The notes under the pieces are model-generated. The model ran no database searches and was not told where the DNA came from. It saw only the letters and a program-made list of their open reading frames with translations. Shown here piece by piece: positions 16,676-42,493 of a stretch of 64,000 nucleotides of DNA. The stretch is from a virus (lineage: Duplodnaviria > Caudoviricetes). The translations under genes were made by a program, and so were the position numbers. The stretch is from positions 1-64,000 of the IMG/VR virus record IMGVR_UViG_3300028888_000107; one strand, 5' to 3'. Positions within the stretch are counted from its first letter, which is position 1, and every line of letters starts with the position of its first letter.

Positions 16676-16754
16676 TAATTACAGTGCAAAAATACAAAAA
16701 TGTTTTAATATATGCAACTAAAAAACAAAAAAGTTATTAACAAAGTTATTAACA
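16676..16754 (-). promoter_or_regulatory. Early promoter cassette copy 1 (Bacteroidota TAnnTTTG -7 box plus tandem TTATTAACA boxes)
   Basis: Minus strand: TGTTAATAACTT x2 ... GTTG-N20-TATTTTTG ... TAATTAAAAAC leader. Confidence 0.8.
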
Positions 16755-34421: not shown

Positions 34422-34883
34422 TTAGTTATATCTTCTTTCGTACATCCCTTTAGGTGCTTCAAGAGCTAACCCTTTTTCTATCAAACCATTGTAATCAAGA
34501 TGACTTTTGTTGTAAAATTGCACCATTTCGTACGTCCTTTTCGCAACTGCTTTTTGAAGAAGATGTCTTCTTTCATTATCGTCTTTTATTTGTTGGACTT
34601 TTTTGACCAAAGTTTCTAAAAATTCACTCTCTATATCTGAAAAAACTTTTTGTTCATCCTCTGTCATACTTGACATCGGACGTAGATAGGGAATATAGTT
34701 ATCCGAATAAGTGGAACCCATTTCATCCGTGAAATAGAAATTACCGTCTTCAAACATTCCAGACAATTTCATATCTTCTTCCACTAATCTACCATCCTTC
34801 TTATGTACAACACTACATATTACCCTATAAGGAAACATTGCGCATAAGAGTTTATTTAAAAGTTCTTTTTCTTCTTTATTCAT
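34422..34883 (-). CDS. Hypothetical protein, PYLRPMSSMT family copy 1
   Basis: EEKELLNKLLCAMFPY...PYLRPMSSMT...HLDYNGLIEKGLALEAPKGMY. Confidence 0.65.
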   Translation of the reverse strand: MNKEEKELLNKLLCAMFPYRVICSVVHKKDGRLVEEDMKLSGMFEDGNFYFTDEMGSTYSDNYIPYLRPMSSMTEDEQKVFSDIESEFLETLVKKVQQIKDDNERRHLLQKAVAKRTYEMVQFYNKSHLDYNGLIEKGLALEAPKGMYERRYN

Positions 34884-36527: not shown

Positions 36528-36589
36528 ATTGTTTGCTTTTATTCGGTTAAATCAAGAAAATGTTCAACAAAGTTGGGTATTTCGCCAAA

Positions 36590-36985
36590 TTAGTACATTC
36601 CCTCAGGTGCTTCCAATGCCAACCCCATTGCAATTAAGCCGTTGTAATCAAGGTGGTGTTCGTTGCAATAGTGAATGAACTCAGCCATTTGTCCCCAAGC
36701 GGCAGGCGACCAACCATCGCCATAGTTTTCGTTTTCAATAATGTTTAGGCATTGTTGAAAATTATCCCTTTCTTCTTGTGTCATACTTGACATTGGACGC
36801 AAGTATGGTTTAAACTGTTCACCAACGTGGCAGGTCAATCCCCCGTTTGTAACAATAAACGGGTATTCGGAAAGGCAGATTGTTTTGATTGTGTCGATTT
36901 TCTTTCCGAGAGCCAATCCCTTGACACCGTACTGTGCTGTTTCGCACAGCGATTTCAGTAATATTTCTTTTTCTTCTTTTGACAT
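36590..36985 (-). CDS. Hypothetical protein, PYLRPMSSMT family copy 2
   Basis: EEKEILLKSLC...KPYLRPMSSMT...HLDYNGLIAMGLALEAPEGMY. Confidence 0.65.
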   Translation of the reverse strand: MSKEEKEILLKSLCETAQYGVKGLALGKKIDTIKTICLSEYPFIVTNGGLTCHVGEQFKPYLRPMSSMTQEERDNFQQCLNIIENENYGDGWSPAAWGQMAEFIHYCNEHHLDYNGLIAMGLALEAPEGMY

Positions 36986-36996
36986 ATTTTTGTGTT

Positions 36997-37176
36997 TTAA
37001 TTTTGGCTAATTGCAAACAAGTTTTTCCATCCAAAAAGGGTTAGTTTTTGTCCAACCGCTTTTTCTATGTTTGGACTAAATTGGCAAAACGTGGCATTGT
37101 AATCCAAGTCTTCATAATCTTCGTAATAATGCTTTCTTGTTAAGCCGCATTTTGTTGTTACAACAAGTCTATACAT
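36997..37176 (-). CDS. Small hypothetical protein (59 aa, below cutoff)
   Basis: Hand translation MYRLVVTTKCGLTRKHYY...FAISQN; fills the gap exactly. Confidence 0.5.
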   Translation of the reverse strand: MYRLVVTTKCGLTRKHYYEDYEDLDYNATFCQFSPNIEKAVGQKLTLFGWKNLFAISQN

Positions 37177-38973: not shown

Positions 38974-39648
38974 TTATTTGTACATATCTTTAGTGGTTTC
39001 CAAGACAAGTCCTTTTTTAATCAATCCATGATAGTTTAAATGGTCACTGCTATCAAAGGCGGACCTTGTGGATTATGTTGCGGTTAAAATTAAACAATTC
39101 CTCCTTGTTGCAATTGCCCTTAAATCTTCGGCAATTTGCTTTATGTTCATATAGGTGTTTTCCGAGTTGGGGTTGCGGTAGTTACGCATAATGTTAATAT
39201 AGTCAATAACCACAACGTGTATCTTAAACCCTTCCGTATCTTCAATTTGCTTAATGTGATTTTCCAAATCAATGGTGGTGCAACAACTTGTGGGGTATTC
39301 CTTTATAAAAAGCCTGCCCAACGGGATAAGTTGCTTCCTTCTAAATTCTTGAAGCCTTTTACCCATCCTTTCATCATCATTGGATATACTATCATAATCC
39401 TTCATATCAATATCCAAAACATTTGCACCTATTCTTTTTATAACCTTTTTGTCACTCATCTCGCAAGTTACAAAAAGAACATTTTTACCGGCTTTCATAA
39501 AGTTGGCGGCATCGTTGCACAAAAATATTGAGTTAGATAGAATTCGATCAATCGCTGCGAAATCTTGGCAAAACGAATCACCGGTTGGTGTGTGCGGCAC
39601 CCTCATGCAAAGGTTTTTTAACAGCCATTCTTTATCTTCTTGTTTCAT
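38974..39648 (-). pseudogene. Chimeric gene: PYLRPMSSMT-family termini enclosing a T4 gp41/DnaB helicase fragment, with one internal TAA
   Basis: Family N-terminus MKQEDKEWLLKNLCMRVPH; helicase segment SIFLCN..VLFVTCEMS..IKEYPT..VIDYINIM..IAEDLRAIA..TAT*STRSAFDSSD; then in frame the family C-terminus HLNYHGLIKKGLVLETTKDMYK*. Confidence 0.8.
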
Positions 39649-39660
39649 ACCACTTGTTTT

Positions 39661-39739
39661 TAATTACACCGCAAAAATACAAAACTTTTTAATATATGCA
39701 ACTTTTGCTACAAAAAAGTTATTAACATTGTTATTAACA
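39661..39739 (-). promoter_or_regulatory. Early promoter cassette copy 4
   Basis: taattacaccgcaaaaatacaaaa...tatgcaac...gttattaacattgttattaaca. Confidence 0.8.
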
Positions 39740-41322: not shown

Positions 41323-41336
41323 ATCTTTATTGTTTT

Positions 41337-41415
41337 TAATTACACCGCAAAAATACAAAAATATTTTATATATGCAACTTTTTATGAAAAAAAGTTATTA
41401 ACAAAGTTATTAACA
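41337..41415 (-). promoter_or_regulatory. Early promoter cassette copy 5
   Basis: Same cassette with two TTATTAACA boxes. Confidence 0.8.
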
Positions 41416-42401: not shown

Positions 42402-42414
42402 AACTTTATGTTTT

Positions 42415-42493
42415 TAATTACACCGCAAAAATACAAAACTTTTTAATATATGCAACCACTTAAACAAAAAAGTTATTAACAAACTTATCAACA
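42415..42493 (-). promoter_or_regulatory. Early promoter cassette copy 6
   Basis: Same cassette; second box is TTATCAACA. Confidence 0.8.

Follow-up and report, generated by a model that had tools for sequence, protein, structure and literature searches.

Gene-fragment duplications and mosaic joints produced by illegitimate, microhomology-guided recombination are known in phage genomes, and the capture of a gene fragment by microhomology is already a known kind of event. The chimeric gene described here resembles such mosaic joints in the short microhomology at its joints, in the intact target and in the new chimeric open reading frame (ORF) that results. It differs from them in that the donor, the product and the empty site are all available, in that an essential gene of this very genome served as the donor, and in that the captured piece begins exactly at a protein-splicing junction. 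What is unusual here is the completeness of the case together with the start at the splice junction of a split-intein gene.

When compared with the replicative helicases of the T4 gp41/DnaB type (PF03796; PDB 8dtp), the inserted piece is a near-exact helicase copy that has motif H1a and Walker B, whereas the chimera as a whole has about half of the ATPase core, a stop at the motif H3 glutamine, and a foreign leader and tail. The recipient belongs to a family of small genes represented by the paralogue at 34422. The likeness lies in the N-terminal and C-terminal (..HLNYHGLIKKGL..) blocks of the chimera, while the family centre is gone and the C-terminal block is split and lies behind the stop. 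The donor, for its part, resembles the fractured gp41 genes with split inteins (Dassa et al. 2009, PMC2677866) and the VidaL intein in being the C-half of a split helicase. In gp41-1 to gp41-7 the split falls at the position that corresponds to residue 356 in the gp41 of cyanophage P-SSM2 (PMC2677866). In contrast to the fractured gp41 genes, the split is here at the P-loop, the halves lie 75-158 kb apart without an endonuclease gene between them, and the chimera itself, which has no intein sequence, cannot splice.

The window, i.e. the whole stretch of DNA that was analysed, comprises the initial 64 kb of a viral record of 78,597 bp with a CheckV completeness of 33%. This 78.6-kb record is part of the genome of a T4-like giant phage; related phages have genomes of about 400 kb.

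The chimeric gene and its empty target site

The ORF at 39073-39648 on the minus strand starts with the ATG at 39648 and consists of 191 codons, ending at the TAA at 39075-39073; past this stop the reading frame is open for 32 further codons, to the TAA at 38976-38974. Along this frame the chimera is composed of three parts, namely the 5' codons 1-39 of the recipient gene, the helicase copy (codons 40-202) and the 22 3' codons of the recipient gene. The features of the locus and the two relevant paralogues are as follows.

39656..39701, minus strand: repeated promoter cassette, 46 nt (GTTG, 19 nt, TATTTTTG, A-rich leader), upstream of the chimeric gene
39532..39648, minus strand: 5' part of the recipient gene, codons 1-39 (family profile positions 1-20, E 4e-5)
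39043..39531, minus strand: inserted helicase copy, 489 nt, 163 codons (40-202), aligned without gaps to L041:10004-10492
39073..39075, minus strand: TAA stop at the motif H3 glutamine (..LTATQ..), which is CAA in L041, in the contig end and in L042
38974..39042, minus strand: 3' part of the recipient gene, 22 codons HLNYHGLIKKGLVLETTKDMYK and a stop (family profile positions 105-142, E 1e-9)
34422..34883, minus strand: full-length family paralogue, 153 aa (family profile E 1e-66)
36590..36985, minus strand: second family paralogue, 131 aa (family profile E 3e-39)

A profile of the small-gene family, built from 28 members, matches both ends of the chimera. The match at 39589-39648 (positions 1-20, E 4e-5) is the N-terminal block M..EEKELLLKDLC.R.PY, and that at 38977-39090 (positions 105-142, E 1e-9) is the C-terminal block ..DWLN.HHFDYRGLIEKGLALEAP.GMY, which is divided by the insert and is located after the stop. 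Codons 1-39 hold the N-terminal block, residues specific to the recipient and the start of the C-terminal block (..IDRILSN). The 3' part matches the 34422 paralogue in tblastn (E 1.7e-5); it is in frame but behind the TAA, and is thus probably untranslated. The initial annotation had read codons 1-19 as the N-terminus shared with paralogues 34422 and 36590, and had seen the frame continue after the TAA into the family C-terminus; both observations hold. It had also considered that the flanks might not align to the 34422/36590 family, and both were found to match the profile.

The middle part is of helicase origin. It matches Pfam DnaB_C (PF03796) with E 1e-12 and 48.3 bits (cut-off 27) over profile positions 35-173 of 255, and PHROG 19, a DnaB-like replicative helicase, with E 5e-32. 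The insert begins with the Walker A serine, which is also the residue that opens the C-extein, and ends at ..SAFDSSD; it contains H1a (CEMS) and Walker B (VVVIDY). The DnaB_C match begins downstream of Walker A, at profile position 35, as expected from the earlier statement that the helicase part starts just after this motif.

The recipient without the insert was found on a 3.5-kb contig of another metagenome (JAEEGL014530529.1; L043), which is collinear with window positions 39917-35484 at about 95% identity (90-96% in most aligned blocks). It is without exactly the 489-nt insert and has an intact 61-codon gene, L043:270-455, in its place. By this alignment the contig is from a sister strain that carries the empty target site. 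The first 39 residues of its 61-aa product correspond to the leader of the chimera (80% identical over residues 1-41) and the last 22 to the tail, so that the 5' and 3' parts are continuous there. When the short recipient is aligned to the family, the N-terminal and C-terminal blocks are kept, and ..IDRLLSN|HFNYHGLIKKGL.. corresponds to ..IDWLN.HHFDYRGLIEKGL.., while the invariant centre of the family, KPYLRPMSSMTEEE, is missing from both the chimera and the 61-aa allele.

Taken together, the empty-site allele and the family alignment identify the 20 codons between the family N-terminus and the helicase piece, formerly described as a linker of unknown origin, as a part of the recipient gene. 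The event is also not a swap of helicase sequence into a family gene, as had been proposed. The empty-site alignment indicates a clean 489-nt insertion into the C-terminal block, in which no family sequence was replaced and the family core was not exchanged; since the short allele of the sister strain has no family centre, the family member that received the insert had been reduced earlier.

The same holds for the promoter cassette, which had been credited to the gene as its own. It is present upstream at 39656-39701, with an exact copy at 42410-42455 and a copy with 3 mismatches at 41332-41377 (expected by chance: 0), and looser copies occur at 16678, 18431, 20616 and 48696 on the minus strand. 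The sequence upstream of the empty site is the same as that of the chimera (384 nt aligned, 95.8% identical) and includes the cassette, which therefore predates the insertion. The cassette appears to resemble promoters of the Bacteroidota -33/-7 type, a hint that the host may be a member of the Bacteroidota.

The family itself is large. For the 34422 paralogue, more than 5500 relatives were found at E<=0.01; it matches no Pfam family, and against PHROGs there is a weak match to PHROG 10841 (unknown function). Its AF2 model has a pLDDT of 89.5, and Foldseek searches of this model against PDB and BFVD, together with a wide VIA search, returned only generic helical-hairpin or small-barrel matches. 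Another difference between the strains involves a family member: the 467-nt block 36531-36997, which carries the paralogue at 36590-36985, is missing from the sister strain, where the stop of a 59-aa gene directly abuts the ATG of a 100-aa gene. Both large strain differences in this 4.4-kb stretch therefore involve the same small-gene family. A junction rule shared by this block and the helicase insertion was looked for and discarded, as the two have no common motif, only AA. The 264-aa protein P0048 is a natural tandem fusion of two complete family members in one ORF, and is another sign that the family is prone to rearrangement. A match of P0185 to chimera residues 6-37 was discarded as spurious, this being a low-complexity repeat protein.

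The donor helicase and its split intein

In its last 131 nt (78597-78467, minus strand) the record holds the 3' portion of a truncated helicase gene, which aligns to 39174-39044 with 2 mismatches. One of the two is synonymous, and the other is C versus T at 39075 (CAA for glutamine versus TAA). A JGI metagenome contig, Ga0310697_10002324 (L041), overlaps the tail of the record over 3012 nt with 0 mismatches; we therefore take it to be the same genome, from which the complete resident helicase gene is obtained (L041:9644-10918, 1275 nt, 424 aa). The copy at 39531-39043 corresponds to L041:10004-10492, or positions 361-849 of the donor gene, with 489-492 nt aligned, no gap and 10 mismatches. At 98% nucleotide identity, this comparison with the phage's own gp41, which the initial annotation had proposed, identifies the donor by sequence as the resident gp41/DnaB-type replicative helicase gene. 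In the alignment of the resident gene with T4 gp41 (PDB 8dtp, E 7e-36), the first copied residue is paired with the S of the Walker A GKS. The fetched part of L041 extends the genome by about 10 kb beyond the record end. Directly downstream of the helicase gene is a gene of the Hsp20/alpha-crystallin family (E 3.7e-7) at L041:10939-11448 (plus strand), which is the record near 78250-77740 (minus strand).

Since the record ends 131 nt inside a repeated segment, the repeat did disturb the assembly; most likely it was the 489-nt repeat at 39043-39531 that broke the assembly at the record end (78467-78597). This raises the question of whether the helicase piece was wrongly threaded into the small gene. 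Against such an artefact, the copy and the resident gene are not identical (10 of 489 positions differ), the joints of the copy share only 4 nt and 1 nt, far under the word length of an assembler, both flanks of the insert are unique and collinear with the sister strain, and an identical ORF occurs on a second contig. On these grounds the structure of the chimera is secure, and an artefact is very unlikely, to the point of being hardly credible.

The 90% cluster of the chimera consists of 2 sequences, this record and a 16,991-bp JGI contig (P0404), both of which end at the TAA. An intact allele in related sequences had been suggested as something to look for; among 5.8 billion clusters, with the stop searched as X, neither an allele without the stop nor any other chimera was found, the other matches being ordinary helicases. 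Neither the chimera nor the neighbouring 449-aa gene was found among the IMG/VR and INPHARED phages searched. The parent helicase belongs to a cluster of 36 members, and the contigs that carry them reach 408 kb. One member, P0390, is deposited under an 'Alphaproteobacteria bacterium' MAG (MBR4624719.1) on a 230-kb contig, which is probably a giant-phage contig binned as a bacterium.

The resident gene opens with about 120 residues ending in ..NGLLSHN, directly before the Walker A serine (..LLSHN|S in L041), and the gene upstream of it is on the opposite strand. Close relatives match the C-terminal end of Pfam Intein_splicing at that spot. For the resident gene the score against this profile is 23.5 bits, below the cut-off of 35.8, with the inner part of the profile covered, and residues 18-121 match the VidaL intein, which is atypically split (PDB 6vgv; E 5.6e-4). 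In two complete relatives of 413 and 388 kb (G001 and G002), the N-half of the helicase has a gene of its own, at a distance of 75 and 158 kb from the C-half. The two halves are located at the following positions.

G001: 299282-299989 and 375058-375681
G002: 324861-325577 and 166803-167408

The N-half genes of both relatives end in ..GQSNIGK|CVC.. followed by an N-intein part of about 35 aa; the phage's own N-half was not found within the 89 kb of its genome examined. By these features the donor is the C-half of a helicase that is split at the P-loop (GK|S), the intein having a short N-part and a long C-part. The intein is probably new, a natural and atypically split one whose site differs from those of gp41-1 to gp41-7. 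About 0.9 kb upstream of the helicase C-half lies a gene for a 107-aa MUG113/T5orf172 protein of the GIY-YIG superfamily (L041:8445-8768, minus strand, E 6.6e-15), which could possibly be a free-standing homing-type nuclease.

We also considered whether the end of the former linker, ..DRILSN, is a relic of the intein or the C-part of a split intein, and rejected this: the residues are present at the empty site and align to the family's ..IDWLN.., and their codons differ from those of the donor's ..GLLSHN, only TAAC being shared.

Joints and mechanism of the insertion

With the donor, the product and the empty site in hand, both joints can be compared directly; at the empty site a single position serves for both.

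Chimera: left ..CTA TCT AAC / TCA ATA.., right ..AGC AGT GAC / CAT TTA AAC..
Donor: left ..AGC CAT AAC / TCA ATA.., right ..AGC AGT GAT / ATA ACA TTG..
Empty site (L043): ..CTA TCC AAT / CAT TTC AAC..

If the recipient formerly read TCTAAC|CAT, zero recipient bases were lost or duplicated. At the left joint TAAC is common to the donor and the target, and at the right joint 1 nt is shared, directly before the donor's second ATAAC. There are four TAAC sites in the 1275-nt donor gene and just two ATAAC sites; the latter, at positions 356 and 850, directly bracket the copied stretch 361-849. The chance of a breakpoint so near to one of the four TAAC sites is about 2% as a rough estimate. The presence of TAAC and ATAAC at the joints leads us to infer illegitimate recombination guided by microhomology. 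A simple TAAC-to-TAAC exchange would have placed the right joint 5 nt further on; either a one-base joint or secondary trimming would account for the difference.

Either illegitimate recombination mediated by microhomology or a double template switch in the course of replication or repair would thus have taken place, within one genome or between co-infecting strains. Through this event, 489 nt would have been copied in frame into a 61-codon, shortened family member, the first gene behind the promoter cassette, and a later C-to-T change would then have turned the glutamine codon of motif H3 into TAA. The earlier view that illegitimate recombination captured a helicase core is borne out by the donor, the empty site and the joints of short microhomology.

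The left breakpoint is also the ..HN|S.. splice junction of the donor. It could be asked whether a break at the intein insertion site by a homing-type nuclease, or an intein-associated gene conversion, set the breakpoint; this concerns the mechanism and not the function. The MUG113/T5orf172 gene lies close by, and fractured gp41 genes are accompanied by free-standing endonucleases (PMC2677866). On the other hand, the intein part of the donor has about 120 aa and no endonuclease domain, the right breakpoint has no connection with the intein, and nuclease cleavage at the site is putative, while the TAAC microhomology suffices for the breakpoint, as the two of the four TAAC sites that were used are the only ATAAC sites. 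We therefore regard a nuclease-set breakpoint as decidedly improbable. Under microhomology-guided recombination, the coincidence of the breakpoint with the splice junction is accounted for most simply by the asparagine codon AAC, which creates ATAAC where it follows CAT.

Probable decay of the copy and fate of the product

The TAA of the copy is CAA in the resident helicase, both in L041 and in the contig end, and in the gene of a sister strain (L042), so that the CAA-to-TAA change suspected at the ATQ glutamine of helicases is supported. In a three-way comparison of the copy, the resident gene and the sister-strain gene, the copy has 8 states in common with the resident gene against the sister strain and 1 in common with the sister strain against the resident gene. 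Its 10 private states consist of 7 synonymous changes, 1 Thr-to-Ile change, 1 nonsense change and 1 junction base; the Ile, at insert codon 69, is also found in the helicase allele P0271. With the junction base set aside, 7 of the 9 copy-specific changes are synonymous (P = 0.005 for neutral change under the same mutation spectrum), and this excess indicates that most of the private differences arose in a working helicase. The simplest reading is a donor allele from a related strain that had diverged by about 2%, the alternative being selection on the copy itself. Six of the 9 copy-specific changes are C-to-T, and 6 of 82 C sites would yield a stop on such a change. The computed chance of at least one stop among six C-to-T changes is about 36%, and hence neutral decay alone can explain the TAA. 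Recoding of TAA was rejected, as table 11 leaves the long ORFs of the window open, CAA stands in the resident gene, and TAA also ends 36590-36985 and 38974-39042.

The 191-aa product is predicted to consist of the 39-aa leader and the central third of a RecA-type core. H1a (..TCEMS..) and Walker B (..VVVIDYINIM..) are present and align to T4 gp41. Walker A, GxxGxGK(S/T), is missing from the copy, which begins at the serine after GK, and so are the H3 glutamine (TAA instead), motif H4 and the arginine finger; the copy extends 10 codons past the stop and does not reach the ..KIRDG.. of the resident gene. The P-loop had been noted as absent, in agreement with the DnaB_C match from position 35 and with the T4 gp41 alignment, in which the copy starts at the Walker A serine. 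Neither the P-loop with its strand nor H4, the arginine finger or the N-terminal domain is present in the predicted product. The strand preceding the P-loop belongs to the interior of the RecA/ASCE sheet, and its loss makes an autonomous fold doubtful. Most likely, the predicted product neither binds ATP nor folds stably.

Three fates had been offered for the fragment, namely a decoy, a dominant-negative inhibitor and debris. We favour the last: the locus is probably a young, decaying, non-functional by-product of recombination, in view of the truncated and incomplete RecA core, the occurrence of the chimera in one strain only and the failure to find an intact allele, while the decoy and the dominant-negative roles are without support. 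Several facts were counted against debris, including the synonymous excess, the in-frame insertion (a 1 in 3 chance), an apparently active promoter upstream, a start exactly at the intein/extein boundary, and the same truncated ORF on two contigs. The frame, the promoter, the boundary and the second contig do not, any of them, demonstrate function.

These facts are nevertheless those from which a function would be argued, in which the 191-aa product would act as a dominant negative on helicase hexamers, of its own or of competing phages, or as a decoy for a host defence that senses helicases. For it speak the in-frame insertion downstream of a repeated promoter cassette, the excess of synonymous differences from the resident gene, the identical 191-aa ORF on the second contig, and the retention of H1a and Walker B. 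This has to be set against the loss of about half of the RecA core, which includes the Walker A strand and loop and everything from H3 on, and against a chimera known from one strain only, when the sister strain manages with an empty site. The synonymous excess follows more simply from a diverged donor allele, and a direct repeat of 489 nt, 39 kb distant from the essential gene that it duplicates in part, would be a recombination hazard in a recombination-proficient T4-like phage. A functional product is therefore unlikely. It is quite unlikely that the truncated 191-aa protein is made from the early-type promoter as a helicase mimic without a P-loop, starting where the spliced C-extein starts. 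If true, such a mimic could cap or poison the gp41-type hexamers that competing phages assemble, or titrate a sensor by which the host detects the phage helicase, and a newly born anti-competitor or anti-defence gene would have been caught at its origin.

As a probable by-product of recombination, the locus still provides a rare snapshot of the birth of a chimeric gene in a phage, with the donor, the product and the untouched target known and both joints resolved to the base. It makes the mechanism concrete, as TAAC/ATAAC microhomology and a clean in-frame gain of 163 codons, and it illustrates that an essential replication gene can seed new ORFs. For annotation it is a warning, as the 'helicase' ORF at 39073-39648 is not the replicative helicase. 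The split-intein helicase of these phages of about 400 kb may matter more than the chimera, as natural inteins with a short N-part are wanted as tools for protein engineering.
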